A stretch of DNA of 32,000 nt from Candidatus Jordarchaeales archaeon (GCA_038889235.1 JAWAHN010000001.1:404499-436498), one strand, 5' to 3'. Shown: positions 1-28,823, counted from the first letter of the stretch. Notes: a model not told the origin generated them from the sequence alone. Made by a program: numbers and translations.

Positions 1-417
1 GTTATTATATCGAAGCTGACGAATAAGATCTGCTCAAAAGACTAGCTTAAAAGAGACACTCTATTTTTATAGAAAGTACTTCACCAAGCAGAACGGCCAT
101 ATTGGATTGGAAAAGGTCTGACATAAGAAGGAGCTTTGAAAGGATTTTTCATAACTATTATGTAATGCCAATGCTTGTTATCATATCGACCTCCATTGGA
201 GTACGCTAAGCAGTTTTTAATCAGTATGAAAGGTGATACCTGCCTTTGCAATTGCTTGGACACGTTGGTGAAACATCTACCAATATATCAGAGACTCGAT
301 AGGAGCTTACTCTTAATTCTACATGTAACCCTAATGAAGATGCCCTTTTTAGACTACAGTTGGGGGGACTTTTTGTTAAAGCACGTATGCGAGTCAAATC
401 CAATTTTAAGGACGTTA

Positions 418-1677: not shown

Positions 1678-1678
1678 A

Positions 1679-2947: not shown

Positions 2948-2953
2948 CCACCT

Positions 2954-5497
2954 TCATATTATTGTTTTTTTGTTTAAACCACGAATAACAATATAAACAA
3001 TGACAAACGAAACAACATAACACAATAGGACAATATGCAGTTCAATAATATAAGAGAACAAAGACAATAAAAGTGTGTAACAAACAGCGTAAATTATGGT
3101 CATCTTTGCTATCTCTGAGGTGAAAATTCTTACACCTGACCTACCGGTTTTTGAGCTGAAAAAGATGTAGTAAGGCCCTAGAGCTATTATTGCCATTAAG
3201 CTATAAGCGGCGGCTTCTACGTCGAGAAGAGGAAGACCATAATATCGTCTTCCAACAGGTATATAACCAATAGTTGAGGTTGATGTGAAATAAATTATTG
3301 ATGCTAGGCTGTAGAGAAGCGTGTATGGTACTAGTTCTACCTTGCGCTTCAAGTAAGCTAGTATTATTAGGAAAGGTACAACCCAAGATAAATGCTGGGG
3401 GTATATCATGTGGTAGTTAAGGTAATGTGAGAGAATGAGTAAAGCCATTGCTGCAGAAATGTTTAGGATGATTGTCTCCCTTCTTTTCGCAGTATACGCA
3501 TACCATAGCACTATTAATGTAATGATGGCCAGGTAAGACCAGGGGTATAGAGGAAGGGAAGGTCTAAAATGCGCAAGTCCTACCCAGGACGTGAGTAAAC
3601 GGCTTGTATAAGTGGTGCGCGTAACGAAATGAGTGAAGAACTCATGGATTCCTCCAAACAGTATGAATGGCATAAATGCAAGTAATGTTGCGCACGTGCC
3701 TATGGTCAGGGCTTTTACTAGTTGATTATATTTCTTTTTAAAGATAGCTGAGGCAATTAGAAGCGCGTAGCCGGCGAATCCAAACGGCTTCGTTAACCCT
3801 GATAGTACAAATAATGTAGTGGCGGCCTGGAACCTCCGCTTCACGAATAAGAAGTAAAGACCTCCTAGGAGAAAAGAGAGAGCCAGCGTATCGTACATTC
3901 CCCATGCACTTGAAATAAAGATTATGAGTGGATTAAAAAGATAGAGAGATCCGTAGAATACGTGCTTGCCCTCGTTTCTCTTGTCGAATATCTTTACGAT
4001 GAAATAGAAGGATGCAACGTCTGCAAGAATAAAGGGCATCTTAATAAAGATAGCTTCTATCATACCCGTAGAATGAGCTAAGAAATAATAGTCCTGGAAG
4101 CCTAGAATCCTCAGCAACGCGTAAAATGAGTAAGAGAAGAGAAGTAGGTATAAGTAAAGGGGCATCGTTGGCCATAATTCTAAGTGAATGGTTCCTGATT
4201 CATAGTACTCCCTTGCGGCCGCTTTCCAAAATTCCATATCGAATGTATGACCTGTAAAGGGAGCAATTAGTAACCTTAAGGAGACCCCGATAATTAAGAA
4301 AATGAGCAGGTCTCTATGACTAATGTTTCTGCCGTAACTTTTAACATAGATACACGCTACAATGAGGGGAGGCACTATGAAAGTTAGCACTATATAATAA
4401 GTAGTAGCCGTTATAGCTATATTTGGATCTATAGGTATCAACGCTGGATATGTGCGGTTTTTTTCGTAGGTAAGTATAACTTTTTCTACATTAAAGAAGT
4501 CAAAGTAACTGTCCGTTAAGAAGATAACGGAAAGGTTTTTCGTTTCGGTTAGAGTTATATTGGCCAACTCTGTTAGGTAACCAAAGACTCTAAAATTCTG
4601 TGGGTAAATCGCTGCCACTTCATAACAAGGTCTTCCTTCAAGAAGATATGTGAAACCTTTACCTATAATAGGGGTTGTCTCATTCCATATGATGGCATAG
4701 ACTGTGTAATTGCCTCCCTTGAATCCCGAAATTGTGTAATACACTCTAATGTGGGTAAGTGTGTAGTTTCCAATTAGCTCCGGCTCTTGAATGTTCAAAA
4801 CAATTGCATACGCCTTCTCATTAGGTTCCCAAACGCTCTTCATCGATGTTAGGGCTTGAAAAGAGATTTCAGAAATAATTAGTATGGAACTAATTACATC
4901 AAAAGGATAATCTTCCATGATTATTATTATCCTCGTAATGTTTATGTCTTCGCGTCCTGTCGCGATGTAAACAAAATCTTTGAGATTGACGGTTACATTT
5001 TCCCATGCATTCTTTCCTTTCCTATCATCTAGCGGAGAAGTTTCCCAAAATACATTATATACATTCCCGTTATTGTCAACGCCTCTGAATCTTATGTGGT
5101 ATAATATGTCCTTAGATACGAGGATTCTCATCTTAAGTAATGGATACTCACTTACGTTAAGATTTAAATCTCTAGAAACATAAACATGTTCTTTTACACC
5201 TTCTTTTGTAAAAGAAGCATTAACAAATAAGCAACCATTGTCGATTGTTAGCTCTGAGTGAGCTGTACCTCCAGACTGCCATTTATTTAATTCGTCCTCG
5301 GCCCAAAAGTCTATTTTAAATTCATCGGCTAACGAAATTTCATAAGGCACTACAAAAGTGTCAGACTGAGCTTCTAAAACTAGATATGTCTTGGGTAACT
5401 GACCTCTTAATGAAAACATGAGTATAACACCGACAAACATGAATATTAGTAGAAGTACGAAAAATCTTCTGCGCCTAATTAGTAAACCCAATCGCAT
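2954..5497 (-). CDS. GT-C fold membrane glycosyltransferase (GT87/PIG-M/DUF2029-like) with a large N-terminal extracellular domain
   Basis: N-terminal TM/signal anchor, ~330-aa beta-rich domain, then a polytopic region with LRLLIAPFTGHTFDMEFW, IKMPFILAD and YLFNPLIIFISSAWGMYDTL. Confidence 0.72.
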   Translation of the reverse strand: MRLGLLIRRRRFFVLLLIFMFVGVILMFSLRGQLPKTYLVLEAQSDTFVVPYEISLADEFKIDFWAEDELNKWQSGGTAHSELTIDNGCLFVNASFTKEGVKEHVYVSRDLNLNVSEYPLLKMRILVSKDILYHIRFRGVDNNGNVYNVFWETSPLDDRKGKNAWENVTVNLKDFVYIATGREDINITRIIIIMEDYPFDVISSILIISEISFQALTSMKSVWEPNEKAYAIVLNIQEPELIGNYTLTHIRVYYTISGFKGGNYTVYAIIWNETTPIIGKGFTYLLEGRPCYEVAAIYPQNFRVFGYLTELANITLTETKNLSVIFLTDSYFDFFNVEKVILTYEKNRTYPALIPIDPNIAITATTYYIVLTFIVPPLIVACIYVKSYGRNISHRDLLIFLIIGVSLRLLIAPFTGHTFDMEFWKAAAREYYESGTIHLELWPTMPLYLYLLLFSYSFYALLRILGFQDYYFLAHSTGMIEAIFIKMPFILADVASFYFIVKIFDKRNEGKHVFYGSLYLFNPLIIFISSAWGMYDTLALSFLLGGLYFLFVKRRFQAATTLFVLSGLTKPFGFAGYALLIASAIFKKKYNQLVKALTIGTCATLLAFMPFILFGGIHEFFTHFVTRTTYTSRLLTSWVGLAHFRPSLPLYPWSYLAIITLIVLWYAYTAKRRETIILNISAAMALLILSHYLNYHMIYPQHLSWVVPFLIILAYLKRKVELVPYTLLYSLASIIYFTSTSTIGYIPVGRRYYGLPLLDVEAAAYSLMAIIALGPYYIFFSSKTGRSGVRIFTSEIAKMTIIYAVCYTLLLSLFSYIIELHIVLLCYVVSFVIVYIVIRGLNKKTII

Positions 5498-5587
5498 ATG
5501 TGATTCACCAACAATGTTGTTACATAAAATAACAGTATCTTCTCCTAAAGGATGTGATTTACCACAAATCAGATCATATTACTTTTA

Positions 5588-6790
5588 TCAATTTTTCTCT
5601 CTTTTTTCTAAAGTTAAAGTATCAAGAAGTAGCTTTGCCGACTGCTCTATAGTGAAATTGCTGAGAACCCTTCTTCTGGCCGCAAGTCCCATTTCGTTTA
5701 CAAGTTCATCGTCTTGAAGCAGTATTTCCATCGCTTCAGCTATTTCGTGAACATTGTAGGGGTCTACGAGAAGGCCCGTCTTGTTATGAATAATGCTTTC
5801 ACTTGTCCCGCCAATGCAAGAAACTATGCTGGGTCTTCCATGGAGTGCGGCTTCGAGTGGCGTTAACCCAAAGGGTTCAGCAATTGCAACATGCACTAGA
5901 AATCGGCTACATGAATACAACTTCATTAATTCATCGTCAGTCACTTTCGTCAATATATGAAAGTTCTTCAAACCTGAAGAAGCGCTTAATAAATTCCTCT
6001 TAAGTGGTCCATCACCAACTATAACTGCTCTTATATCAGGATGATTCTTCTGAACAATTTTCAGGGCCTCTATTAATCTTAAATGATTCTTTATTGGAAT
6101 AATAGCTCCAACCGATAAGATGAGCTTCGACTTACCGGGTTCAATCTGCTCCTTCTCGTGAAAGAAGTTATACTCAATGCCCGGATATACTACATGAACA
6201 TTTTTGGCACCATACAAACGCGTTATTACCCTTTTAGTGAAATAACTATTCGCGATCACCATTTTGAAGCTATGGATGCTATTGAGGTCTAATGTTCTCG
6301 CCATATATACTATGGGCTTATAGAAAAGCTCGAGAAGCACCCTAAAGGAAGCCCCATAAAGCGTCTCACAAGTACTTAAGACTGTTTCCTTGTTAATATC
6401 GTAACTTTGCCCAGAAACGTAGTCTTCCCATATCGCTCTTAGAGGCTCTCCGGAATACCAAACGGCCTTATGATCCAGAGTTTTGCTAATAAACCACAGT
6501 AGAGAAGGATCCACATGATGGTGAATCAGTACAATATCAAAAGCTTTTAGGCGTTGAATCGTCTTGTAAGACTTGTGTAGGTTAGGTTTCATATTCTTGA
6601 ACAACAATGGCAGTGTTTGGATGTTTATTTTGTGAGATTCTAGCCGAGAAAGCCAATAAGAAGGTAGTAAACCACCATAGAAAAGAGCAACGTCAATGCC
6701 CATTTTCTTCAGTTCTATTGCATGTAGAATACACAACTTTTCGGCCCCTCCAAATCTGCCCAGCGCTGTATGAACAAAGGCCACTTTCAA
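5588..6790 (-). CDS. Glycosyltransferase family 4 (GT-B)
   Basis: GGAEK N-terminal motif, IANSYFT, VVYPGI, IVGDGP and EPFGLTPLEAALHGRP (E-x7-E motif); TTG start. Confidence 0.92.
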   Translation of the reverse strand: MKVAFVHTALGRFGGAEKLCILHAIELKKMGIDVALFYGGLLPSYWLSRLESHKINIQTLPLLFKNMKPNLHKSYKTIQRLKAFDIVLIHHHVDPSLLWFISKTLDHKAVWYSGEPLRAIWEDYVSGQSYDINKETVLSTCETLYGASFRVLLELFYKPIVYMARTLDLNSIHSFKMVIANSYFTKRVITRLYGAKNVHVVYPGIEYNFFHEKEQIEPGKSKLILSVGAIIPIKNHLRLIEALKIVQKNHPDIRAVIVGDGPLKRNLLSASSGLKNFHILTKVTDDELMKLYSCSRFLVHVAIAEPFGLTPLEAALHGRPSIVSCIGGTSESIIHNKTGLLVDPYNVHEIAEAMEILLQDDELVNEMGLAARRRVLSNFTIEQSAKLLLDTLTLEKREKN

Positions 6791-7140
6791 CCCAAATCAC
6801 CCCCTTTAGCCAGCATCATTATTAATCGTACACTTACATTTGAGACTTGCATTTTAACAATACTGGTCTTCTTGTTTAAATTTAATATGTAATAAATAAT
6901 TATTTTTAGGCTTACAGGTTGAGGCATATTCGTGTTCTTTCTTGCTAGCCTTATTAAAAAGGAATGAACTCTGTTCTGGCTCCTAAACTTCCTTGAGTAT
7001 TGTATTTGACCTTCCAGCCCTGTTTCATGTATTTCTATTAGTCTGCCCGACGGCTTCATGAGCTTTAACCCCTTTATAACGTAAACCTCCACGTCCTGCG
7101 AGGGACTGTCAGCCAGCTTGATTGTCGACTCGACAAACAT
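6787..7140 (-). CDS. Hypothetical protein (may be a gene fragment)
   Basis: 117-aa ATG ORF whose TGA overlaps the GT4 TTG start (TTGA), suggesting translational coupling; no recognisable motif. Confidence 0.35.
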   Translation of the reverse strand: MFVESTIKLADSPSQDVEVYVIKGLKLMKPSGRLIEIHETGLEGQIQYSRKFRSQNRVHSFLIRLARKNTNMPQPVSLKIIIYYILNLNKKTSIVKMQVSNVSVRLIMMLAKGGDLG

Positions 7141-8389
7141 CCTGTCTTTGGGATAAGTCTTAGATATTGTTATGTGAGGATAAATGGGATGAAGAATATT
7201 TAATATTTTTCGTATTATAATCTTGTACTAGGGTGAATTATAAGTGAGAAAAGAATAGTTGCTGTTTACGACATGTTTTGCTAATCTGCCTTCGGGGTCC
7301 CTTAGTGTTTAACAGGCATTCCTAACTATTAGCTTGCTATTAAAAACACTTAACTAATATTCTTCCTCGTTTATAATTCACTTTCCCTTCAAGCACAATC
7401 TACTGAGAGCACGTCTTAAGCTTATACCATGACTAGCTTGCTAGGGCACGGCCTCGAAAATGTGTAATACTTCAACTACAGATTATTCTGTCGAAGTGCA
7501 CCACTCTCCTCCAAGATATTAGGCCATGCTTTTTCTCTTGCCTTACTGTCTTCTCTTCCTTTTGGGAGAGAGACTCGCCACTAAAAGACCTGGAAAACTT
7601 GTGTTCCGCGGGTTAAAAAATGGGTTTACCCCTCCCCTTCTGAAAGTAAAGGGGACCATCAACTTGTGGTATGACATCATCTTGGAAGTGTTAAAAGCAA
7701 ATGTAAGTAAAGCCGAAAATAATACTATGGTTAGCGTTCCCGTGATATTTCCATGCTGTGTTTTTGTGCTGGCTTTTTATTTCTCCGGCTACTTTCTCTT
7801 GGCACCATCAAAAACTAGGGGAGGAGTTTTTTGTTCCCCGCTTGTGTCTGCCTAGGACCGCATATTGGTGTCCTTCGCCGAGAGTTAGAACAATAAATTC
7901 AGCTTATGAAGGCACCATGTTCTTACTTTACTAATTTTTGACTGAGATGGTTTTTAGGATGCCTTGAACAGAGATTCCTAATGCTAGCAGGAGGTACGTT
8001 GCGTTTATTTTATGAGCTTTAATGCTTGGCTGTTAACGTTCCTATTCCTTCTAGTCTTATTGTAAATAAGTGACAGATAGTTTAATGAGCGACATATGTA
8101 AACAAAATAAAACGAGTTACACGCTTGTACTGACGACGACAATTTGTTCTAGTTTGCGTAAAACATTTTTATCAACACCACTATGTTACATGGCTTCTAA
8201 AAAGCAGCTTCTTTTCTATTAACAAAGATAAAGGTCCTGGGAACGAGTGTGAAAAAGGAATGAGAACGCAAATTTATTCTGGGAAGTTTCACTGTCCTTA
8301 GCAGTCCGTGTTCTCTAAATCTTATCTTTCAACTCTTTTGATTTTAATGGTTTCCTTGGTATGGAGCAGCAGACCGTTTATTGATGCTT

Positions 8390-8722
8390 TTACTCTGCCT
8401 TGTTGTTTGTCGTTTTGTGTAGTAGTATTCCTTCTTCTGTGGCTTTTTTTTAACGATGGTAATTTGCCTCTTTTTTCTCTGAACTCTTCAAGTGTGTAGC
8501 ATAATGCGTCGACGTTTAGGGGGTTTCTGTGATAAGCTCGTAGACTTTTATTATTCGCTCCTGAAAGTCCATTTTCTTGAACGTTCTTGATATGACTATG
8601 ATGTCGTAGTCGCTGCTTCTAAGTGCGTCCCCTCTAGTTCTTGAGCCGAACAGTAGGATTAGTTCAGGATCGAATGCGTCCTTGATTTTCTCTATGAAGC
8701 TTTTAATTCTTTCTTCAGCTAT
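8390..8722 (-). pseudogene. Minimal nucleotidyltransferase (MNT) antitoxin, frameshifted and start-less
   Basis: Manual translation gives AEERIKSFIEKIKDAFDPELILLFGSRTRGDALRSSDYDIIVIS (GS-x10-DxD), then after frameshifts PLNVDALCYTLEEF and ATEEGILL; start position reads ATA. Confidence 0.8.
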
Positions 8723-9075
8723 TCGAAGAACCTCCTGGTCATCTAGTATTCTTTCGGTTTCCTCTTTGTCTTAGGTTCTGCCGGGACGCCGCCCGCTGCG
8801 TCGGGGTACCTTGAGACTATGAATTCTGGTGTGAGGTTTCCCGCTACTCTTAGAACTTCTTCCGGGAGGGATAATCCAAGTGAAAGGTCTAGAAGGTTGC
8901 TTGTTTGTGGAGGAAAATCTTTCTTTCTGGTGATGTAGAGGGCTTTGAAGGCTTTCTCCACGGCCTGCTGGCAGAAGAAGGCTGAAGCGTAGTGGTTGCC
9001 GTCTTTGAAGCAGCCCTCAGCCGTCTTCATGTCTGCTTTACTTTGCTTAAGCCAGCGCTCAGCTTCCCCCCTCAG
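8690..9075 (-). pseudogene. HEPN domain protein (archaeal HEPN-MNT pair), C-terminus disrupted
   Basis: EAERWLKQSKADMKTAE...YASAFFCQQAVEKAFKAL...SRYPDA; the expected C-terminal helix (DKEETERIL / MTRRFFE*LKKELK) is split across frames; GGAGGTG lies upstream of a CTG/TTG start near 9075. Confidence 0.8.
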
Positions 9076-9187
9076 ACAAGCACCTCCTTCCCCCTTGAGT
9101 CAGATATTAAAATCGCGTTCTACTCCTTTCCTTGATTATTTACGGGTCCGTGTCGAGTTATAGAGAAAAAGTTTCTTTGCAAAGCTT

Positions 9188-10204
9188 TTAACTTGTGGTG
9201 AAGTAGAAGAGCCATTTAAGTAGAGATATTGTTACTAGCATAGCTGACGTGGCGGCGACTGACAGAAGGGTTCTTGTTACGACGTTTTTTCTTGTTCGGG
9301 GGGCGTATATGAATTGTGCCGGCTCGTTTAGGGTTAGCTCCATCTTTTCAGCTATTTTTGGTATGTCTGGTAGTTGTTTTTCGGCTTCCGTGAGGGTTTG
9401 TAGTAGGAGGTGGTACTCGCCGCCTGCCAAGTGGTCGAGTAGTTTTGTGACTATTTGTCTGGCTTTTTGCACATTGTTTTTCTCGCCGTGGATCATTGTG
9501 AGCGTTATCGTGGCTAGATAAGGTTGTGGGTTAATTTCTTCTATTTGTTTTGTGTTTCGCAGTATGGTGTCGGTGACCATGGCGTGAAGGATGACTGTGA
9601 GGATCTCTATTTTTTTGTAGTCTTCTTTGGTTGGTGTTTCGGGTATTTCTTCCAGTAGTTTTTTGCACATGTTTGTTAGCTTAGTTGTTTCGTCGAGGTA
9701 AGGGAGGAGTAGGAGGGTGGTTGAGAAAGCCATGGACGCTGATGTAGTGAAGAAGAGTAGTGAGTATAAGGTTGGGAGGTGTTCTTGGAGGACGTCGAAC
9801 CATATAATGGCCACGGCTGCGGCGTTAACTGCGAGGAAGAGGTATGCAAGGAATAGGAGACCGGCTGAAACGCGCTTGTTTTCTCTCCAATGTTCGAGGT
9901 ATGCTAAGGGGGGTATGTCGAGATTGACTATCTTGCTTGTGAGTTTCTTTTCAGAGAGCTTGGCTGCCAGTAGTAGTACTAGAGTTACGGCAATAAAGAA
10001 TGATACTTTGACTGCGTACTCCCTGACTGTGAATATGTTCGTGTTGACAAAGTAGAGGTATTTTCCTGTTTGTAGTGAAATGAACAATGGGGTGAACGAG
10101 TATCTAATTACTATGTAGAACACTGTAATTAGAGTGAGTGAGGCAGAGGCCCCTATAACATAGGGGGTGATACGCTTACTTAGTGCGGCTTGCAGCGATT
10201 TCAA
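9188..10204 (-). CDS. Hypothetical polytopic membrane protein
   Basis: 338-aa ORF with about four N-terminal hydrophobic segments, a helical soluble domain and a C-terminal TM; follows the GT2 gene on the same strand. Confidence 0.6.
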   Translation of the reverse strand: MKSLQAALSKRITPYVIGASASLTLITVFYIVIRYSFTPLFISLQTGKYLYFVNTNIFTVREYAVKVSFFIAVTLVLLLAAKLSEKKLTSKIVNLDIPPLAYLEHWRENKRVSAGLLFLAYLFLAVNAAAVAIIWFDVLQEHLPTLYSLLFFTTSASMAFSTTLLLLPYLDETTKLTNMCKKLLEEIPETPTKEDYKKIEILTVILHAMVTDTILRNTKQIEEINPQPYLATITLTMIHGEKNNVQKARQIVTKLLDHLAGGEYHLLLQTLTEAEKQLPDIPKIAEKMELTLNEPAQFIYAPRTRKNVVTRTLLSVAATSAMLVTISLLKWLFYFTTS

Positions 10205-10301
10205 TTGAACACACCCAGAAGCGTTTTTATAAGGGTGGCGTCCTCTTTTAACCCGAATCGTCTCAAACTAATAAATTTTATTTTGTGTGTTCTGCTTTGA
10301 A

Positions 10302-11045
10302 TTAGGTGGGTTGTTTTGTGCCAGTATTGTTGGTTTGAAAAAGCCTTTTTAGAGTTTCGGTTTGGAGTTTGGTGAGGTGTATTACGTAGTTCATGTACTC
10401 GGAGGTTTTTAGCTTGCTTTTCCCTCTTTTGCGGACTTGGAAGGTGTATGGTGTTTCCACTATTTTTTGGAAGTTTCCTTTGGCGATTAGTTCGAGGAGT
10501 ATTTTGAAGCCTTTCGGGTTGAGTTCTAGTCCTTCCACTGCTTGTTTTTTGAAGACGAAAAATCCTGAAAGTGGGTCTTTCACCTTTCTGGCGCGTGGTA
10601 TTGTGAGAGTTGCCATGAGTGTTGCTACGCGTGAGACCAGGCGCCTCCACGTGGACCAGCCTTCCACGCTTCCGCCTTTGGTGTAGCGGCTGGCTATGAC
10701 TAGGTCTGCTCCGTTTATGATCTCTCGAAACATTTGGGGGAGGAGTTCTGGGGGGTGTTGTAGGTCGGCGTCCATAACTGCCACGGTGTCTCCTTCCGCC
10801 ACATTGAGCCCGTCTATTACTGCTGATGCGAGGCCGCGCTTACCCGCTCTGTGGACGACTTTTATGTTTCTGTACTTTTCGGCCAGTTTTTCAGCCAACT
10901 CTCCTGTCCCGTCGGGGCTGTTGTCGTCGACTATTATGAGCTCGTAGTTTATCTCGTTTAACGCTAAGCGGAGGCGTTCAACAAGTTCTCCTAGATTGTC
11001 ACGCTCGTTATATGTTGGAATTATGACGGACAGAAGCAAGCACAA
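10302..11045 (-). CDS. Polyprenol/dolichol-phosphate mannose synthase-like GT2 (DPM1 family)
   Basis: LSVIIPTYNE, IIVDDNSPDGT, KRGLASAV, VMDADLQHPPE, DLVIASRY, DPLSGFF and GFKILLE. Confidence 0.92.
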   Translation of the reverse strand: MCLLLSVIIPTYNERDNLGELVERLRLALNEINYELIIVDDNSPDGTGELAEKLAEKYRNIKVVHRAGKRGLASAVIDGLNVAEGDTVAVMDADLQHPPELLPQMFREIINGADLVIASRYTKGGSVEGWSTWRRLVSRVATLMATLTIPRARKVKDPLSGFFVFKKQAVEGLELNPKGFKILLELIAKGNFQKIVETPYTFQVRKRGKSKLKTSEYMNYVIHLTKLQTETLKRLFQTNNTGTKQPT

Positions 11046-11268
11046 ACCCCTCTTTCTTCAGAGAGATACAAGATATGATAGATAAGTGAGAAATAAGGTT
11101 TTTTATGTGAGAGCTCTTGACGACGGAAACCTTCTTGTTGCATGGTAACAAGGGGTGTTCGGTGTATGTCGGATTCCGATCACGCGTATTTGTCGCGTTA
11201 ATCGTCGTGGGAGTGAGGCATAAGCTTGCAGGCATTTTCTGAAGACACGAATTTGTGTTGTTTTCCTT

Positions 11269-12594
11269 TTGAAAACCCTTTTATACTGTTTGGTTTCCCT
11301 AACTTTGATGTTTTCCGGGATGGTGATGGGCTTGGAGTTGCTGGAGCTCATCAGGAAGGGTCTTAGGGTTAAGGGTTTCCTTTACGTTACTATTGGGAAC
11401 TTCGTTAATGCTGGGTTGGGTTTCTTGTTCTTCTTTATGGCGGCGCGTATAATGCACGTTGAAAATTATGGTGTTTTAAGTTATAATATTTCAGTTGGTT
11501 TCCTTGGCGTTGCGCTCACCGTCCTCGGGCTTCAGACCGCTATTATAACGTTTTACCCTAAGGAGAAGAACTTGGAGTTTGTGAAGCAAGCCGCTACTCT
11601 TAGTTTTTTGCTCGACTTTGTTGCATTGGTCGTCGTGGTAGTGGCGGTAGTCCTTTTTGACGCACCGCTCCTACCTGCAGCGCTCATCGTTTTTGGAGGG
11701 ACAGCGTTTAGCATGTATATCGGTTTCACCCTTGGAAGACAGGAGTACAAGAGCTACGCTTTACTCATAACGGTGATGAGAGTGGGACAATGCGTTTTCT
11801 TGGTCCTATTTTACCTTTTCGTCGCTTTCACCAGTTGGTTCATGGTTTGGCTGGAGGAGGCGATACTCCTCGCCTACGGTATTGCTTACTTGGCTGCTGG
11901 CTATCGCTACTTCAGGCTTCTCAATTTCAACCTTTCGTTTAACGAGGTTTACGCTAGGTGGAGGTTTTGCCTCCCGGCGGCTGTTTCAAGCGTGTTAACA
12001 GCATCCCTAGGAAGCTTGGATAAGGTAATTATAGGGTCTCTGTTTGGAATGCATTCGCTTGGCAACTACCATCTTGCCTTCCAATTTCTCACGGCACTGA
12101 TGGTTATTCCGACCAGTTTGTTCAGCTTTCTCCTCCCGGAGAAAGCTGGAGGGAGGGTTAGAAGGGAGGTGGAGGTGCTTGGCGTGGCTGTGGCGGTGTT
12201 GGTTAGCTTAACGGGAATCATAGCGGTTCCATTTTTCATTAAGGTGTTTTTCCCGGACTTTGAAGGGAGTATTAGCGCCATCCAGCTGCTCAGCTTGTCT
12301 GTCGTACCGGCGAGCATAGCGTACATAAAGTTGAGTGAGCTTTATAGCAGGGAGAGAGCCGACCTAGTGATGGCTTGCCATGCGGCTATGTTTGCTGTTT
12401 ACATAGCGGGTGTTGTTTTGCTTGGCGGCTGGCTTCAGATGGCCGGCTTCGCCCTATCCTATACCGCTGGGCAGATTGTTCTAGCCGTGATTTCATACGT
12501 GTTTACTACGAGCAAGTGGGAGAGGTGGGAGGCTAAAAGGAGGAAGAGACGAGAGGAAGAAGGACAAAAGGGGTGTGCACCCGCACAGATTTAG
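11269..12594 (+). CDS. Oligosaccharide flippase / polysaccharide biosynthesis protein (Wzx/MOP family)
   Basis: About 12 hydrophobic segments with ARIMHVENYG, LDKVIIGSLFG...LGNYHLAFQF; true start may be a few codons downstream (ATG near 11311-11326). Confidence 0.8.
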   Translation: MKTLLYCLVSLTLMFSGMVMGLELLELIRKGLRVKGFLYVTIGNFVNAGLGFLFFFMAARIMHVENYGVLSYNISVGFLGVALTVLGLQTAIITFYPKEKNLEFVKQAATLSFLLDFVALVVVVVAVVLFDAPLLPAALIVFGGTAFSMYIGFTLGRQEYKSYALLITVMRVGQCVFLVLFYLFVAFTSWFMVWLEEAILLAYGIAYLAAGYRYFRLLNFNLSFNEVYARWRFCLPAAVSSVLTASLGSLDKVIIGSLFGMHSLGNYHLAFQFLTALMVIPTSLFSFLLPEKAGGRVRREVEVLGVAVAVLVSLTGIIAVPFFIKVFFPDFEGSISAIQLLSLSVVPASIAYIKLSELYSRERADLVMACHAAMFAVYIAGVVLLGGWLQMAGFALSYTAGQIVLAVISYVFTTSKWERWEAKRRKRREEEGQKGCAPAQI

Positions 12595-12696
12595 TCTTCC
12601 TCTACACGGAAGGATGTTTCGATGAGCAGTTTCGCCGCATTAAAAATCGGTGTGAAGATTGGCTGTTGTCACGTTTTTCTTTTTAACGTTTTTAGC

Positions 12697-20357: not shown

Positions 20358-20873
20358 TTGAGCACGTATGTTTTCAAGGTGGTTATGGTTGGTGACCCAT
20401 CCGTTGGGAAGACTAGCCTTGTTATGAGGTATGTGAAGGGGTTCTTCGAATACGACTACAAGGCAACCGTCGGGACACAGATAATGAGCAAGGAGGTTCA
20501 GGTTAAAGGGTTAACGGTCAAGTTGATGATATGGGATATCGGTGGCCAGGAGAAGTTTAACACGTTAGCTCCGGCATATTATAAGGGTGCGGCTGGAGGA
20601 CTCGCAGTTTTTGACTTAACACGAAAAGAGACCTTTGAAAACCTGTCTAAATGGATTTCACGCTTAAGGACTTACGCAAACCCAAACGTGTCCATTGTCA
20701 TAGTTGGAAACAAGTCCGACTTGGTGGACGAAAGACAGGTCTCGCTCGAGGAGGCTATGGAGCTAGCAGAAAAAATCGGAGTCCCCTATATAGAGACGTC
20801 TGCCAAGAGCGGGAAAAACGTTATCAAGGTTTTCGAGATAATCGCTGAGAAAGTAGTAACTAAGAAAATTTAA
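20358..20873 (+). CDS. Rab-like small GTPase
   Basis: G1 GDPSVGKT, G2 YKATVG, G3 WDIGGQ, YYKGA, G4 NKSD, G5 ETSAK; no C-terminal Cys. Confidence 0.92.
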   Translation: MSTYVFKVVMVGDPSVGKTSLVMRYVKGFFEYDYKATVGTQIMSKEVQVKGLTVKLMIWDIGGQEKFNTLAPAYYKGAAGGLAVFDLTRKETFENLSKWISRLRTYANPNVSIVIVGNKSDLVDERQVSLEEAMELAEKIGVPYIETSAKSGKNVIKVFEIIAEKVVTKKI

Positions 20874-21665: not shown

Positions 21666-22196
21666 TCACTTGGTTATTTTTTGAGCCAAGTTCTTGACTA
21701 TGAGTGAGGCTAGGGATGTGAAAACGTCCTCTACGCACGTGCCAGTTTTGGCCGATGACTCGAAGTAGGGTATGTTAAGTTTGCTTGCAAGCCTTGCGCC
21801 GTCTTCAAAACTTACCTTTCTTTGGGGTGAAAGGTCGACCTTGTTTCCAACGAGGATTAAAGGTATGTTACCACAGTAGCGTTTCACCTGCGCCACCCAG
21901 TCTTCAACGTTTCTAAACGACTCAGGGTTGGTCACGTCGAAGACTACTAGTGCGCCTTGCCCTCCTTTAAAGTAGTTTGGAAGCAGAGGCTTAAACTTCT
22001 CCTGCCCACCAGTGTCCCATATTGTTAGCTTCACGGAGAGGCCGTCTATGTACACTATTTTCGAGTAGAAGTTGACCCCTAATGTCGGCATATAGTTCTC
22101 TTTGAAAGAGCCTGTCGTGAACCTGAGCGTGAGACTGGTCTTACCCACCCCTCCATCGCCAACGACGAGGACTTTGAAGTGGTAATTTGGAAGCAC
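21666..22196 (-). CDS. Rab-like small GTPase
   Basis: G1 GDGGVGKT, G2 YMPTLGVNF, G3 WDTGGQ, YFKGG, G4 NKVD, G5 ESSAK; no C-terminal Cys. Confidence 0.92.
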   Translation of the reverse strand: MLPNYHFKVLVVGDGGVGKTSLTLRFTTGSFKENYMPTLGVNFYSKIVYIDGLSVKLTIWDTGGQEKFKPLLPNYFKGGQGALVVFDVTNPESFRNVEDWVAQVKRYCGNIPLILVGNKVDLSPQRKVSFEDGARLASKLNIPYFESSAKTGTCVEDVFTSLASLIVKNLAQKITK

Positions 22197-22399
22197 TCAA
22201 CAGTCCTCCTCCTTTTTCGGCGCAGTCATTAAACAATAGAACTCGGTAAAACTTAAAAATTAAGCGATGACGGCGCCTTCGACAGGTGGCTGGCAGGGGA
22301 TATAAAAGAGCGGATAAGCATGAGGATCTTCCCCGCGTTTTACTCAATTTCATAATTACTCTTTTTTCCCTTTACTTCCCTCGGAGGGAGTTGGGCGTG

Positions 22400-22636
22400 A
22401 TGTTTAGGAACGTTTTGAGGAGAAGAGGATTCTGGAAAGTTAGAGGAGGAGACGAAGAGGTTTTCATGAAGCACGATGAAAGGATCGGCGGCATATATGT
22501 CACGCTGCAGAACCGTGTGGCCATTGTTAGGTTAGAAGACAGAAACGTTGTAGAAGTGTTCAGGAGCGCGAAACATTTAGAGTTATACCTTAAAAAACTC
22601 GAAGAAGAGAAGTTTAGCAGGTTGCTGCTGAACTAG
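22400..22636 (+). CDS. Small hypothetical protein
   Basis: MFRNVLRRRGFW... 78 aa from ATG 22400 after GGAGGGAG; globular, protein-like composition. Confidence 0.6.
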   Translation: MFRNVLRRRGFWKVRGGDEEVFMKHDERIGGIYVTLQNRVAIVRLEDRNVVEVFRSAKHLELYLKKLEEEKFSRLLLN

Positions 22637-23007: not shown

Positions 23008-23805
23008 TTAAAGTGATGTTGAAGAGTTGTTTTTCGTGAGCGATTTTGCCGTAGTTTTGCAACTCGCTTTTTGTGACTTACTTAGTGTAGATTTTTGCGC
23101 GCTTCTGGTAACAGGTGCTTCGACTATCTTCCCATTCGAGAAAGAGATCTTTACTTCTATTGGGGTCTTCCCCCTTTGCCGGATCTCCATCTTGTCTTTT
23201 TCCAGGAATATCAGTGCGTTTGCAAGGTGGAGAATTGACTCTGTTTCAGCGTCTTCAGCTAATTTTCGTTCTAGTGTTGCTAGTATAACGCTGTTTGAAA
23301 GCTGTATTTTCGCTTTTAGAAAGAACATGAACCTTAACGTGGCTTTGGGGGAAGCAAGTGATATGATAGAGGAAAGCGAGTCGATCACTATGCGTATGCG
23401 CCCGAGAGAAGACAGCCTCATTATGGCATCAACTATTTTCGAGCTTAGGGCTGCTAGGTCTGTTGGCGCTGAGACATACGTCACCGTGACACTATCTTCC
23501 ACGGAGAAGTCTATCGTGGGGCGGCAAAGGTCTATTATCCTGTATGTCGGGGACGAGCTCTTATACTTGGAGAGATCTACTCCTAGGCTGGCGACTTGGG
23601 ACTCCACCTCCTCAGCGAAGTTCACTGTTGTAACGTATATGCTCCCCTCTCCAAGCCTTAATCCTTCGCAGAAAAACTCCATGGCTATTAGCTCTTTCCC
23701 TCCTAGTGGCTCGCCTATAACTATGCATAAGGAGCCCGGGTTGAACCCTCCGCCAAGAATGCGGTCTAGGAATTCTATTCCAGTTTTTAGCTTCACTCTT
23801 TCCAT
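23008..23805 (-). CDS. RAD55/KaiC-like RecA-superfamily ATPase with degenerate catalytic motifs
   Basis: KTGIEFLDRILGGG, Walker A GEPLGGKE (Glu at the T/S position), TTVN in place of the EE pair, Walker B RIVIDSLS; S/T/K-rich tail. Confidence 0.85.
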   Translation of the reverse strand: MERVKLKTGIEFLDRILGGGFNPGSLCIVIGEPLGGKELIAMEFFCEGLRLGEGSIYVTTVNFAEEVESQVASLGVDLSKYKSSSPTYRIIDLCRPTIDFSVEDSVTVTYVSAPTDLAALSSKIVDAIMRLSSLGRIRIVIDSLSSIISLASPKATLRFMFFLKAKIQLSNSVILATLERKLAEDAETESILHLANALIFLEKDKMEIRQRGKTPIEVKISFSNGKIVEAPVTRSAQKSTLSKSQKASCKTTAKSLTKNNSSTSL

Positions 23806-23827
23806 GAGTTTTCTCTCCTGCGCCAGC

Positions 23828-24190
23828 TTACGTCAACGCTTCCGCTACACTTTTACATGCTTCCTCAAGTGCCTTAACGAGGTTGGGGGCGGCTGTCTTT
23901 GATGAGAGCACTAGGAGGAACGCCTTGGAGCCTGCACCTATGATGGTGATTACTCCTCCCTCTATTTCTAGGGATAGGTGACGAGCTATTCCTCTCTTGA
24001 CGGTTTCAGCGGCTACTTCCGCGGCTCCAAGCATTGAGGCAGACATAGCGGCGAGCCTGCTAACGTTTATGTCGTGGGGCATGAGCGATTCAAGAACGCT
24101 CCCGTTTCTCATCGCGACGAGACAGCCTTCAACCCCCTCCAATGATTGGAGCCTCGTCAGAACCTTTTTAATCTTTTCCCTAAACTCCAC
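23828..24190 (-). CDS. Roadblock/LC7 (MglB-like) protein
   Basis: EGVEGCLVAMRNG...LAAMSASMLGAAE...LEIEGGVITIIGAG...LLVLS pattern; directly follows the GTPase gene. Confidence 0.9.
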   Translation of the reverse strand: MEFREKIKKVLTRLQSLEGVEGCLVAMRNGSVLESLMPHDINVSRLAAMSASMLGAAEVAAETVKRGIARHLSLEIEGGVITIIGAGSKAFLLVLSSKTAAPNLVKALEEACKSVAEALT

Positions 24191-24205
24191 AGCACAACCC
24201 TCCCT

Positions 24206-25345
24206 CTACATAGAGATTATGTTAAGGAGTATGTCAACTAAGAGGAAAGTGTTAACTCTGTTTTTGGCACTGCATCCTACCACTGGAATAGACGGCGGAA
24301 TGCCGAGAATTGATCTAAGCTCTCCTGGAGGTATTGCCGACTCCAAGTCCTGTTTGTTCGCTGCCACAACTACCGGGGCCTTTCCTCGACACTTGTCAAA
24401 GAGCTCCCTAGCTCTTACGAAACTCGAAGTGTCCGCGCTATCAACCACTAGGATGAAGCCGACTGCCCCGCTCATCATCATGTCAAGTATTGGTTCGAAC
24501 TGGGGCTGACCCGGGGTTCCAAAGAACTCTATGAAGAATCCCTTGTAGTCTAGTGTTCCGTGATCAAGTGCCACGGTTGTCCCAGCTCGCTCGACGCTGA
24601 CGGCATCCTCAGCCAGCGCGTGAATAAGCGTGGTTTTTCCTGCATTGTACGGCCCGAGAACAACTATCTTTGGAAGGTATACTCTCAGCTCTCCAGGTGG
24701 GACTACTTTGACCAAGAAGAATAGGTCTTTCACGTCACCTACCCAGGCTGCCTTCTTTACCCTCATTTGGTTCTCTACCAGTAGTAGAGGGTCTGGTCTG
24801 ACTTCTAGAACACCGTCGAAGAAATGCTCTATTTCCTCAACGAGCTCACTGGTGTACGTCCATGAAGAGAAGAGGGCTATCAGTGTGGATGAGCCAACGG
24901 CTTTTAGAACATCGAGTAACGGTTTCACTTCGCCGCCGAGCGACTCCAGGAAAGTGTTTACTGAGTCGAGTACTAGGAGTGTTTTTTCGGTCGAGAGGTC
25001 AGATAACACTCTTTTAATTGAGCTGATGTCATAGGGGTTGACAATGTATCTTTCAAGGCTTTCCGCCCCGCTTAGCATGGAGTAAGCATCGACCATTACG
25101 AATTGGCCCTTTTGCTCGTATGCCTCGAGGTTTAAACGAGATTTCCTAGCTTGCCTTCTCACGCTTAAAGGGGGCTTATTATTCACGAAGTAAACTACGT
25201 TGAAGCCCTCCTCTAAGCCAACCTTAACGACGTGCAAACCGACTATTAGTGGGTCAAAGCTAGGTGAAATAACAAACATGTTTTTAGAGGATATTGGTAT
25301 GCCGCCAACCCTTCGGTCAAAGAGTGGGAGCTTTAGCCGCATCAA
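24206..25345 (-). CDS. Fusion of an inactive KaiC/RecA-fold domain and an MglA-like small GTPase
   Basis: N-domain LFDRRVGGIP, lost P-loop (SPSFDPL), LLVLDSVN; C-domain GPYNAGKT, TTVALDHG, GTPGQ, NKQD, SAK. Confidence 0.85.
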   Translation of the reverse strand: MMRLKLPLFDRRVGGIPISSKNMFVISPSFDPLIVGLHVVKVGLEEGFNVVYFVNNKPPLSVRRQARKSRLNLEAYEQKGQFVMVDAYSMLSGAESLERYIVNPYDISSIKRVLSDLSTEKTLLVLDSVNTFLESLGGEVKPLLDVLKAVGSSTLIALFSSWTYTSELVEEIEHFFDGVLEVRPDPLLLVENQMRVKKAAWVGDVKDLFFLVKVVPPGELRVYLPKIVVLGPYNAGKTTLIHALAEDAVSVERAGTTVALDHGTLDYKGFFIEFFGTPGQPQFEPILDMMMSGAVGFILVVDSADTSSFVRARELFDKCRGKAPVVVAANKQDLESAIPPGELRSILGIPPSIPVVGCSAKNRVNTFLLVDILLNIISM

Positions 25346-25459
25346 ACTCGCAGCCCACCAGGAGCATTATCGTGAGGGGGGCGCATAGTTGGAGGGACAT
25401 GGGCTTGCAAGTGCCTCTTACACGCGCGATCTGTTAAGCTTCCGGATTTTAGGCAGCTC

Positions 25460-26248
25460 CTAGTAGAGTATCACTATGCCGTTCTCGGTTATCGAGAAGC
25501 GTTTTTTCCCTTCGTAGTGGGGGGACCCCCTCATCTTGTATATTTCGATGTACCTGCTTCTCTTGTCTCCTTCAGGTTCCCAGTATAATATGAAGACTCC
25601 GTCAGCCATGAATTCTTCCACGCCAAACCTCGTTATGCCCGGCTTACCGTACTCGGCTTCTGTTACAAAGATAGAGGTGCACCCGTACCTTTTCAACATG
25701 CGTGATATGACGTTTAGCTCCCTTCTAACCACGCCAATGTTTCCATACTGCAGGAATAGGACGGAGATCGGGTCGAGGACTACCCTCTTGATACTACACT
25801 CTCTAACCGCTGTCTCCATAGTAGAATATAAACCATCCAACGTGAACATGTCGGGGTTAAGAGATAGGGCTTTGTCACCTATGGCGATAGCGCTAAGGTC
25901 CAGCAATACCAGCATCTGCCGCTCTATGAGGTCTTTCAGGTTCCACCTGAAATTCCTCGCATTTCTCAATATACTATCCAGGTGCTCTTCGAGTGAGACG
26001 TAAAGCCCAGGTTCACCATACTCCGCCGCGCCACGATAGAGGAACTCTAAGCAGAAAATGGACTTTCCTGCCCCAGATACACCCGATAGCAGGTAAGTAG
26101 ACCCCCTAAAGAGCCCACCCCTAACGAGCTCGTCGAACCCTCTAATCCCCGTAGGTGTCCTTTCGCCAGGAGATTCTAAAACGCGCGCCTCACGGATAAT
26201 TCTCTCCTTAAGCTCCGCCATGAACCCTGAAGAACTAGGTTTCTTCAC
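25460..26248 (-). CDS. Single-domain KaiC-like ATPase (CI-type)
   Basis: PTGIRGFDEL, Walker A GVSGAGKS, catalytic SLEE, RVVLDPIS, RFGVEEFMADGV and KMRGS; start is GTG 26248 or ATG 26221. Confidence 0.92.
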   Translation of the reverse strand: MKKPSSSGFMAELKERIIREARVLESPGERTPTGIRGFDELVRGGLFRGSTYLLSGVSGAGKSIFCLEFLYRGAAEYGEPGLYVSLEEHLDSILRNARNFRWNLKDLIERQMLVLLDLSAIAIGDKALSLNPDMFTLDGLYSTMETAVRECSIKRVVLDPISVLFLQYGNIGVVRRELNVISRMLKRYGCTSIFVTEAEYGKPGITRFGVEEFMADGVFILYWEPEGDKRSRYIEIYKMRGSPHYEGKKRFSITENGIVILY

Positions 26249-26522
26249 GCCTCTCCTCCTCCTTCAAAGGTTCTAACACGGCTATAAGCTCTTCCTCACT
26301 AGGCAACCCTATAAAACGCCAGTTCAAGCCCACTATATCTATTGTGGGTGTTGAGATCACTCCCTCCCTCACAGCTATTTCAGGATTCTTAGATATGTCG
26401 ACTTCTTCAACCTCAAGATCCAAGTTAAGCTTTTTCAGCGATGAACGCACCGTCTTAATGACCTGGTGATACTTCGGGGTGCGACTCGACTTAAAGATGA
26501 CTATCTTGTACTCTTTGCTCAT
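26235..26522 (-). CDS. Cys-less thioredoxin-fold protein, KaiB-like
   Basis: 95 aa from ATG 26522 after GGGGGA: YKIVIFKSSRTPKY...EEVDISKNPEIA...ISTPTI...RFIGLPSEEEL; contains no cysteine. Confidence 0.75.
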   Translation of the reverse strand: MSKEYKIVIFKSSRTPKYHQVIKTVRSSLKKLNLDLEVEEVDISKNPEIAVREGVISTPTIDIVGLNWRFIGLPSEEELIAVLEPLKEEERREET

Positions 26523-26619
26523 TATATTCCCCCGGGAAGAATAAACAATACTTTTGAATATAAAAATAATTATATCGATTCCTTGGGTGTCTGTTTGCTT
26601 CGCGAAGGGGGGAGTATTG

Positions 26620-27666: not shown

Positions 27667-27713
27667 GTTAAGTAGGAATACATGGTGAATTGTTACTTTC
27701 ATTCCTACTTAAC
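27667..27713. repeat. Perfect 13-bp inverted repeat at the tnpB 3' end (right-end / omegaRNA stem)
   Basis: GTTAAGTAGGAAT (27667-27679) and ATTCCTACTTAAC (27701-27713) with a 21-nt loop. Confidence 0.85.
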
Positions 27714-28823
27714 CCTTCCCTCTCGATTAACTCATTGAGGGCTCTTTGGGGGAACCCTGCTCCCCGCATCTGAAGGTTTAATACCGCTACAACGTCTCTA
27801 TCCATTGTCAATCCGCATTTTTCGCATCGCATTATCCTGCCCCCATAGGAAGCCATGCTTCCTGAACACAGGGGGCAGACCTTGGAGGAGTTTTTAGGAT
27901 CAACATATTTTACTGGTAGGTTAAGCCATTTAAGCTTGTATTCGAGCATGAACTGAAATGCCCTTGCGTTCCACTTTGATAGCTTGCGGTTCATTTTCTT
28001 TGAGCGGTTTAGAATTCGCCTCTTTACGCCTTTCAGGTTTTCAAGTATTGCTCCGCAGCTCTTTTCTTTCAGCTCCTTCGCTATGCTTGCGGTTAGCTTA
28101 TGCATGAAGTCCCTTGCCTTATTCCTCTCACACTTAGAATACTTCTTGAGGAGCATCCTTGATGTATTAGGCTTAATCTTAGATAGCTTTTGTATCCTTT
28201 GCCGCCTGACTTCATAGGCTCTGTGGATGTGATAGAGTCCTCTTAAGTCATAGCGCCTAATCTCGCCATCTATGAGTGCCGTTACGTTTGTCAGGTTCAC
28301 ATCAAAAGAAGCCCACCTATCCGCTTTAGGCTCAACGTCCCTCTTAACCGTAACTATGAGCTCCTTCTCGGTTAGGATTAAACCTCCAACTCTGTCGAAG
28401 TCTTTCGGAATCCATGAATACTTATTCAAGTCAACCTCAAGATACCGCTTATTGGGCTCTATGCTTATCTTTAGTATGCTGTTTCTGAAGCTGAAGAGCG
28501 TGCTCTTAATGTAGACTGTTCTTCTGGTTATCTCAGGCTTACTTTCAGCTCTCCCTCTGTTGTAGAGCGTTATCCAGCCCTTAACAAGCCCTATGACTGA
28601 GTTTATTGCTGAATCGACATAGTGCTTTGAAAACCTCCAGTCTTTCAGCAGCTCACCTCTAAGCTTCCTCCTATCCTCCCTACTGAGGGTTAGACGGGCT
28701 CTATTAGAAAACCTTACATGGGCGAAAATATGCTCCAAGGCTCTCTGCTTAACCTTGAAGTATTCTTCGATTAAATCCCCCTGGAGTTCCTACTGGGATT
28801 CTGTAGCTCTTAACTGCCTCCAC
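27668..28823 (-). pseudogene. tnpB: TnpB RNA-guided endonuclease with a 5' frameshift
   Basis: RuvC-I ASFDVN, RuvC-II ILENL, Zn finger CPLC/CEKC, RuvC-III DRDVVAVLNL; the N-terminus (V/M)EAVKSYRIPV from GTG 28823 is out of frame with DLIEEYFKVKQRALE across a G5 run (28777-28781). Confidence 0.82.

Follow-up and report, generated by a model that had tools for sequence, protein, structure and literature searches.

Five genes and their products

The stretch of DNA analysed here, in its full length of 32,000 nucleotides (nt) termed the window, is part of the genome of an Asgard archaeon of the order Jordarchaeales (GCA_038889235.1, JAWAHN010000001.1:404499-436498). The genome is 2.14 Mb in size and 95% complete. 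Between positions 23008 and 26522 the window carries a cluster of five co-directional genes on the minus strand, termed A to E in the order of their reading. The cluster is a real and conserved variant of an uncharacterised archaeal signalling module that combines KaiC-family ATPases with a small GTPase, and for which we infer a mechanism below. All five protein families are known already. Many archaea have the core formed by C and D, in most cases beside a further KaiC-like gene, and the part specific to the Jordarchaeales is the addition of A and B. The nearest database matches carry the labels Jordarchaeia or Freyarchaeota. The coordinates, spacings and domain types obtained from the list of open reading frames (ORFs), Pfam and NCBIfam are all as given in the first-pass annotation of this DNA, whose list of parts (a Cys-less thioredoxin-fold protein, an intact KaiC, an inactivated KaiC fused to a GTPase, a Roadblock protein and a degenerate KaiC-like protein) is correct. 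From A to E the spacings are -14, 114, 15 and 22 nt; the gap between B and C becomes 117 nt if C begins at the ATG at 25342, as in database entry P0001. The genes and the domains of C are as follows, with lengths in amino acids (aa).

26235..26522, minus strand: gene A, 95 aa, Cys-less thioredoxin fold, KaiB-like (Pfam, PDB search and AlphaFold2 (AF2) model)
25460..26248, minus strand: gene B, 262 aa, single-domain KaiC ATPase of CI type (PF06745, 2.7e-67), overlapping A by 14 nt
25346..25459, minus strand: spacer between B and C, 114 nt, with TATA-like TTTATATG in close relatives (DNA alignment with L007-L009)
24206-25345, minus strand: gene C, 379 aa, fusion of a KaiC-like domain and a small GTPase (Pfam, NCBIfam and AF2 model)
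24671..25345, minus strand: N-terminal domain of C (residues 1-225), inactivated KaiC-like (iKaiC; PF06745, 4e-10 over residues 35-182)
24206..24670, minus strand: GTPase domain of C (residues 226-379; Arf 4.7e-14, Ras 1.5e-11, TIGR00231 6.5e-16)
23828..24190, minus strand: gene D, 120 aa, Roadblock/LC7, MglB-like (Robl_LC7, PF03259, 9e-12; 45 bits against a cut-off of 23)
23008..23805, minus strand: gene E, 265 aa, degenerate KaiC-like of DUF7504 type (PF06745 8.9e-25, DUF7504 9.5e-9)

Gene B scores 227 bits against PF06745 (cut-off 26.6), and its Walker A (GAGKS), Glu pair (LEE), Walker B (LDP) and KMRG motifs are all retained, being invariant or conserved in alignment A3. In a phmmer search of the PDB it matches the CI domain of clock KaiC with 175.7 bits (1e-50), as against 54.1 bits for CII of the same chain, 140 bits for the archaeal homologue PH0186 and 127 bits for PH0284. 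Together with the intact catalytic motifs this bears out the earlier description of B as a CI-type KaiC. The protein is a single domain of 262 aa without CII and its phosphosites. V-E-E in B aligns with I-S431-T432 of CII, so that at this position B has a CI-like acidic pair and not phosphosites. The segment AIGDKALSLNPDMF aligns with a loop of CI at the position of the B-loop, the element through which CI binds KaiB in cyanobacteria. An insert at this position is absent from the Thermoplasmatota genes that occupy the same place in their operons, and those operons have no A (alignment A3). B falls below the equivalog cut-offs for clock KaiC (NF006799/TIGR02655; 204.5 against 408 and 179 against 546), and a search of the 95%-complete genome for KaiA (PF07688) gave no match at E<=0.1, with the Synechococcus elongatus control detected.

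The fusion protein encoded by C has an N-terminal KaiC-like domain that lacks Walker A, and in which W162 and Y164 are invariant among 25 diverse relatives (alignment A1). It is followed by a GTPase domain whose Arf/Ras match spans residues 226-365, with the motifs GPYNAGKT (G1), R-A-G-T-T (G2), GTPGQ (G3), NKQD (G4) and SAK (G5). In the same alignment T256 and T257 of G2 and G276, T277, G279 and Q280 of G3 are invariant, with P278 nearly so. R253, three residues before the G2 Thr (R-x-G-T-T), is also invariant and could be a catalytic finger. In the AF2 model of the whole protein (predicted local distance difference test (pLDDT) 91.7, predicted template modelling score (pTM) 0.87), residues 1 to ~225 match PH0284, a hexameric RecA-superfamily ATPase, as well as SSO2452, FlaH and KaiC, with a TM score of ~0.78 normalised by target. 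The remainder superposes on Arl3, the best GTPase fold match of the whole model. The linker between the domains is highly conserved (alignment A1), and the fusion is predicted to fold as one rigid unit. In all full-length relatives the GTPase lies behind the 225-residue KaiC-like domain, unlike single-domain MglA.

In MglA groups 2-5 the G3 motif is GTPGQ, lacking Asp, and a Thr takes the place of the group 1 Arg beside the G2 Thr (PMC4316618). All other small GTPases have DxxGQ, and groups 2-5 include the archaeal group 4 (Wuichet and Sogaard-Andersen 2014, PMC4316618). That survey concerns single-domain GTPases, and describes group 4 as lacking conserved neighbours. The top 60 PDB sequence matches of the GTPase domain of C are to Sec4, Arl, Arf and Sar1. 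The cluster had been described as containing an MglA/MglB-type switch. This holds for the GTPGQ and TT motifs and for the Roadblock gene 15 nt downstream, and does not appear to hold for the nearest solved relatives, which by sequence are Sec4, Arl and Arf; the term 'MglA-type' is therefore used here for motifs and partner, and not for the closest solved relative.

Gene D has the motif R-N-G within the family motif R-[DN]-G, where R28 and G30 are invariant (alignment A5). The motif is R-D-G in the aligned euryarchaeal, DPANN and Bathyarchaeota partners and R-N-G in those from Jordarchaeia and Thermoplasmatota. A conserved Asp-Gly pair is expected in MglB coupled to MglA groups 2-5. R28, invariant before [DN]-G, could be a catalytic finger. 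In gene E the Walker A position reads GEPLGGKE and T-V-N replaces the catalytic Glu pair, with the Walker B Asp kept (alignment A4). Both E and the N-terminal domain of C thus match the KaiC fold or family with their catalytic motifs lost, and are iKaiC proteins; their PF06745 scores exceed the Pfam cut-off.

The product of gene A contains no Cys, with TPKY at the position of the CxxC motif. It matches Thioredoxin_3 in Pfam (8e-7) and the MJ0307-type thioredoxin model in NCBIfam. A sequence search of the PDB returned the archaeal thioredoxins 1NHO (3e-7) and 1FO5 (1.6e-6), and KaiB chains at 2e-4 to 2e-3 over nearly the full length. The AF2 model (pLDDT 79) has the topology b-a-b-a-b-b-a (b, strand; a, helix), a thioredoxin topology that is also that of KaiC-bound KaiB. 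In VIA-align the best thioredoxin gives Z = 11.1, and Legionella KaiB and the N-domain of SasA give Z = 9.6; with redox thioredoxins leading and KaiB close behind, the fold search cannot decide between a KaiB-type protein and a redox thioredoxin. A is the sole, and hence the best, match to the KaiB model in its own genome.

Word-indexed searches with A reached only close relatives, and an exhaustive profile search was required. The A-family profile (alignment A2), run against 1.84 billion proteins, gave 39 hits in total, one of them its own cluster. The best outside hit (P0161, 4.8e-10) is a Cys-less protein of 92 aa, whose gene directly abuts, stop to start, a downstream gene for a double-domain KaiC of 497 aa. 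On that metagenome contig (L090:2027-4967) short DUF7504/KaiC-like fragments and a 160-aa gene come before P0161 and the double-domain KaiC; on a shorter contig (L091) a weak V4R match precedes the KaiB-like gene. The remaining hits are partly CxxC thioredoxins and partly proteins above the Pfam cut-off for KaiB (P0174, P0176, P0180, P0188, P0190 and P0162); P0164 is on a contig of 714 nt without gene context. Judged by these sequence comparisons, A is best described as a divergent member of the thioredoxin-fold family, redox-dead and on its KaiB side. The designation of A as KaiB-like in the first-pass annotation is upheld in so far as the profile reaches members of the Pfam KaiB family, the fold is Cys-less and the gene adjoins a kaiC-like gene; membership of the Pfam KaiB family itself is not.

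Conservation and distribution of the cluster

Full-length fusions of the C type are present in 11 of 400 genomes of the phylum, all from the order of the window; the other matching Asgard genomes have the GTPase part only. In each of the 11 genomes A is single-copy and located ~0.8 kb upstream of the single-copy fusion gene on the same strand. The order A-B-C-D-E is found in 10/10 Jordarchaeia loci, one of which reaches the contig end after D, and in these loci A and B overlap or stand <=8 nt apart. This bears out the earlier claim that the genes belong together. The loci fall into two clades, between which the fusions are ~47% identical and the B proteins 57-60% identical, and the flanking genes differ by clade, with MoxR/VWA genes in one and genes for Rab-like GTPases in the other.

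A relative of C is encoded in 431 species genomes, spanning Thermoplasmatota, Archaeoglobi, Methanosarcinales, Methanocellales, Methanoperedens, Bathyarchaeota, several DPANN lineages and Jordarchaeia. Profiles made from the five proteins of the window were used to score the surroundings of 82 distinct loci within a radius of 5 kb; many loci end at contig ends, so the counts are lower bounds. A same-strand Roadblock gene lies near the fusion in at least 69 of the 82 loci and a further KaiC-like gene in at least 72, with a KaiC-like gene of intact Walker A in at least 42. A-type genes were found in the Jordarchaeia loci only (10 of the 82). The layout varies with lineage. In Methanosarcinales, Methanoperedens, Archaeoglobi and Bathyarchaeota it is an E-like gene, the fusion and Roadblock. 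DPANN have the fusion followed by one to three Roadblock genes, Thermoplasmatota have an active KaiC, the fusion, sometimes Roadblock, and a dead KaiC, and Jordarchaeia have A, B, the fusion, Roadblock and E. A neighbourhood search for the five-gene order had been proposed; A and B occur a single time, and in that order, in each of the 11 Jordarchaeales genomes searched, and in the loci of the other lineages the core is found without A. The combination of GTPase, Roadblock and KaiC-like genes had been presented as part of an architecture with no characterised counterpart; it is peculiar neither to this locus nor to Asgard archaea, and is widespread in Euryarchaeota, Thermoplasmatota, DPANN and Bathyarchaeota.

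The A and B part has a narrow phyletic range. The A family is essentially confined to Jordarchaeales, as are the orthologues of B, and the next relatives of B (40-43% identity) have no thioredoxin-like, GTPase or Roadblock neighbours. Jordarchaeia orthologues score 343-523 bits against B of the window, compared with 84-145 bits for the genes at the B position in Thermoplasmatota, Bathyarchaeota and Nanoarchaeota, those of Thermoplasmatota reaching only ~84 bits. On these scores, recruitment of an active KaiC to the position upstream of the fusion took place on more than one occasion and drew on different KaiC lineages, and the arrangement has arisen with non-orthologous genes in at least four phyla. 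Repeated recruitment of non-orthologous genes suggests a linkage that is functional and not accidental, and is the best available argument for joint action of ATPase and GTPase. A tree built from the fusion proteins unites those of Jordarchaeia in a single clade (support 100), itself split in two; they adjoin a Thermoplasmatota group with which they have in common the arrangement of active KaiC first and dead KaiC last. The root of the tree is arbitrary, so no direction of transfer is drawn.

The spacer between B and C is 114-144 nt in the window and its closest relatives, and 8-18 nt in L010 and the second Jordarchaeia clade. In three close relatives it contains the TATA-like sequence TTTATATG ~100 nt before the fusion gene (L007:5855-6000, L008:5857-6000 and L009:5863-6000), of which the window has a degenerate copy, CTTAACAGATC. 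An internal promoter for C, D and E is thus possible, judging from the element in the relatives.

Across the genome as a whole the KaiC model gives 15 matches; at least 11 ORFs are KaiC-like and 12 have a Roadblock domain. Two of the KaiC-like ORFs, of ~475 aa, are double-domain proteins (G000:C1:42376-44508 and G000:C3:212343-215287), each beside a further KaiC-like gene, and three of the Roadblock ORFs are clustered at C2:245958-247905. In a Nanoarchaeota locus (L056:6556-9174, plus strand) an ORF of 872 aa downstream of the module scores 2019 bits against the single-domain Roadblock profile; taken at face value this would mean many tandem Roadblock-like domains.

A proposed signalling route and its alternatives

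The gene content, the state of the motifs, the conserved order, the restricted range of A and B and the CI type of B are observed; from them we infer all contacts between the proteins, the direction in which the signal flows and the output in the cell. The reading towards which we lean, though not strongly, is a composite, kinase-free signalling module of two layers, in which the ATP/ADP state of a KaiC would act on a tethered GTPase. One layer, the pan-archaeal core of C, D and E, would comprise the tethered GTPase of MglA group 2-5 type, the Roadblock protein and a dead KaiC-like protein. The other, specific to Jordarchaeales, would comprise the ATP-hydrolysing CI-type KaiC (B) and the KaiB-like protein (A), which probably docks on B. 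By analogy with MglB, the nucleotide state of the GTPase is most likely set by D, bound as a dimer. Both PH0284 and KaiC form rings in crystal structures, and on this ground the KaiC-fold domains of B, C and E would associate via the oligomerisation surfaces typical of the fold. A would read B's ATP/ADP state or lock it, this state would then be passed to the tethered GTPase, and D would reset the output.

Binding of A to B is plausible. The complex model gives an interface score (ipSAE) of 0.60, with 0.04 for the best control, contact agreement of >=92% between runs and partner pLDDT of >=84, and is classed as 'weak support'. The mark used was reached by 58/80 solved complexes and 2/110 mismatched pairs; scores <=0.60 were given by seven of the 80 solved complexes and by both of the mismatches that passed. 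Modelling of the KaiB-like protein with KaiC, a check that had been suggested at the outset, is thus on the side of an interaction, weakly.

Several results weigh against the two-layer module. The modelling result for A and B is weak, and since KaiB-KaiC complexes are already solved the score may reflect remembered likeness. A matches redox thioredoxins better than KaiB, both by sequence and by fold, and its match to the KaiB family (PF07689; 7.8e-4, 19.6 bits) is under the gathering cut-off of 27 bits. The GTPase appears by sequence to be nearer to Arf, Arl and Rab than to the solved MglA structures. Neither A nor a CI-type B accompanies the core in most of its archaeal versions, so it works in their absence. 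Lastly, the TATA-like element in the spacer of the close relatives would allow two transcription units.

The last two points also make the main rival, according to which A-B and C-D-E are two independent neighbouring modules whose adjacency reflects common descent in one order and not a shared mechanism. We regard this as unlikely, though it deserves to be taken seriously: in most lineages the core has neither A nor a CI-type B beside it, the 114-144-nt spacer has its TATA-like element in close relatives, all 11 genomes come from a single taxonomic order, so that conservation among them is not independent evidence, and the upstream KaiC of Thermoplasmatota is no orthologue of B. Yet the order is kept across two clades whose proteins are ~40-53% different and whose flanking genes are not shared, the gap between B and C is just 8-18 nt in L010 and the second clade, an active KaiC is placed right upstream of the fusion with non-orthologous genes in at least four phyla, and A and B are found nowhere else in Jordarchaeales genomes. 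A rather improbable relative of the two-layer module would be a split, phosphorylation-free version of the KaiBC core running a G protein. Here the CI-type ring of B would hydrolyse ATP slowly and A would capture the post-hydrolysis state; the ring would stack on, or mix with, the dead KaiC domains of C and E, one of which carries the GTPase, and a delay set by the ATPase, or a reading of energy charge, would be turned into a GTP/GDP switch that is reset by Roadblock.

In cyanobacteria the slow CI ATPase sets the period of the clock. A true timer of KaiBC type, whether hourglass or oscillator, in which the GTPase would read a delay arising from slow ATP hydrolysis in the CI-like ring of B and from late capture by an A that switches its fold, would be in keeping with the greater closeness of B to cyanobacterial CI than to other archaeal KaiC homologues, with the kaiBC-like arrangement of a kaiB-like gene overlapping stop to start with kaiC, and with the predicted topology of A, which is that of the KaiC-binding, thioredoxin-like state of KaiB. 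We consider it very improbable, as B lacks CII and has EE at S431/T432, so that no phosphorylation cycle is possible at those sites, KaiA was not found in the 95%-complete genome, A is under the KaiB family cut-off, and an uncultured archaeon, probably of the subsurface or a hot spring, has presumably no evident need for daily timing. It is also improbable that the cluster is a regulator of polarity or surface structures in the strict MglA/MglB sense, in which the GTPase would mark a pole or a site of pili, archaella or cytoskeleton and the KaiC-like proteins would be accessories like ArlH/FlaH. The MglA group 2-5 motifs and the adjacent Roadblock gene agree with it, as do the match of the iKaiC domain to the FlaH structure, weak matches of E and B to ArlH/FlaH models, the frequency of Roadblock genes in archaeal type IV pilus loci (PMC4858521), and the presence within 8 kb of genes for Rab-like GTPases, a long coiled-coil protein and a gelsolin-like protein. 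But the ArlH/FlaH scores are far under the cut-off, the Rab-like neighbours are retained in the closest clade only, and there are no pilus or archaellum genes in the window or in the related loci examined; such a context was rejected for the window.

The two-layer module resembles several known systems in part. Among MglA/MglB switches, of which those of Myxococcus xanthus and Thermus thermophilus are examples, it is with MglA groups 2-5 that it shares GTPGQ, the Thr by the G2 Thr and the adjacent Roadblock gene. It differs in that the GTPase is fused to an iKaiC domain and accompanied by two KaiC-family genes and a KaiB-like gene, that the GTPase scores best to Arf, Arl and Sec4, and that Roadblock has R-N-G where most archaeal partners have R-D-G. 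The likeness to cyanobacterial KaiB-KaiC lies in the match of B to CI (1e-50, with Walker A, EE, KMRG and the segment at the B-loop position) and in the Cys-less thioredoxin-fold A just upstream of and overlapping B. In contrast to the clock, B is single-domain, without CII or phosphosites, KaiA was not found in the genome, A is nearer to MJ0307-type thioredoxins, and the module is joined to a GTPase switch. The actinobacterial conservon (CvnA-D) is likewise a conserved operon, encoding a GTPase of MglA group 2 and an MglB homologue with an NTP-using sensor as input (PMC4316618), but that input is a histidine kinase, whereas here there are KaiC-family ATPases, one of them covalently tethered to the GTPase. 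The ArcoA system also has an archaeal small GTPase with a dedicated regulator in the same operon; ArcoA, however, binds membranes via an N-terminal amphipathic helix, pairs with a SepF-like protein and has no KaiC-like or Roadblock part.

Archaeal KaiC-like signal transduction hubs with active and inactivated KaiC domains have been described (Makarova, Galperin and Koonin 2017, as cited in PMC5847659 and PMC4858521), and a KaiC arCOG is associated with a KaiB-like component of the thioredoxin family (PMC4858521). The present genome has the expanded KaiC family of such hubs, and active and inactivated copies in one operon. Searches of the literature on KaiC, Roadblock, GTPase, MglA/MglB and Asgard gave no description of the fusion module as such or of the five-gene architecture, the 2017 paper being represented there by the papers that cite it. 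The organisation of eukaryotic cells depends centrally on small GTPases that have Roadblock or longin regulators. In archaea the main signalling hubs are thought to be KaiC-family ATPases, with no experimental link to small GTPases. The locus physically joins a GTPase to a dead KaiC domain, and one Asgard order adds to it the archaeal pair that most closely resembles KaiB-KaiC(CI). It bears on the role of iKaiC domains and on KaiB-like/KaiC pairs outside cyanobacteria as nucleotide-state sensors; and with five small, soluble-looking and strictly co-conserved proteins it makes a compact and testable system. Were the split KaiBC core running a G protein to be real, an archaeon related to the ancestor of eukaryotes would have a non-transcriptional timer or energy sensor coupled to its small-GTPase signalling. 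Within Asgard archaea the fusion is limited to Jordarchaeales, among the 400 genomes, and so says little about that ancestor itself.

Boundaries, putative signals and neighbouring genes

The elements at the two ends of the cluster are as follows.

26557..26566, minus strand: putative promoter, TATA-box-like TTTTTATATT, ~40 nt before the start of gene A (consensus resemblance only, read from the sequence)
26529-26533, minus strand: putative ribosome-binding site GGGGG, 7-11 nt before the ATG of gene A (read from the sequence)
22286..22636, plus strand: convergent ORF of 116 aa, downstream boundary of the cluster, no Pfam match

The putative promoter is located in an AT-rich stretch before the ATG of gene A, and upstream of this the cluster is bounded by a divergent radical-SAM gene. 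At the other end 811 nt separate E from the next gene on the same strand, which encodes a Rab-like GTPase, and the convergent ORF lies inside this interval. It is present at the syntenic site on the opposite strand in L007, L009 and L010, with 56-72% amino-acid identity (tblastn). Its retention as a protein in three relatives indicates that the cluster stops after E. The window contains no RNA families by Rfam, and PADLOC found no defence families at the locus, the sole match being one of 22 residues at the P-loop of C to LeoA. A scan for sigma-70 promoters and terminators is uninformative for an archaeal host.

Downstream of the cluster two Ras/Rab-like small GTPases are encoded at 20358-20873 (plus strand) and 21666-22196 (minus strand), matching the Ras family at 4.5e-54 and 1.7e-58, with an Ssb-like OB-fold gene between them. 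A small GTPase occupies the same downstream position in L007, L009 and L010 and is absent from the second Jordarchaeia clade, where MoxR-type AAA and VWA genes are found instead (L001). A TnpB/Cas12f-like gene (27668-28738, minus strand; Cas12f1-like TNB domain 8e-18, OrfB_IS605) is situated two genes upstream of the cluster. Towards the start of the window an ORF of 847 aa (2954-5497, minus strand) is without a Pfam match. Positions 1-12600 have a GC content of 0.38-0.43, compared with 0.46-0.51 elsewhere, and carry polysaccharide genes encoding a pyruvyl transferase, a glycosyltransferase and a flippase-like protein.

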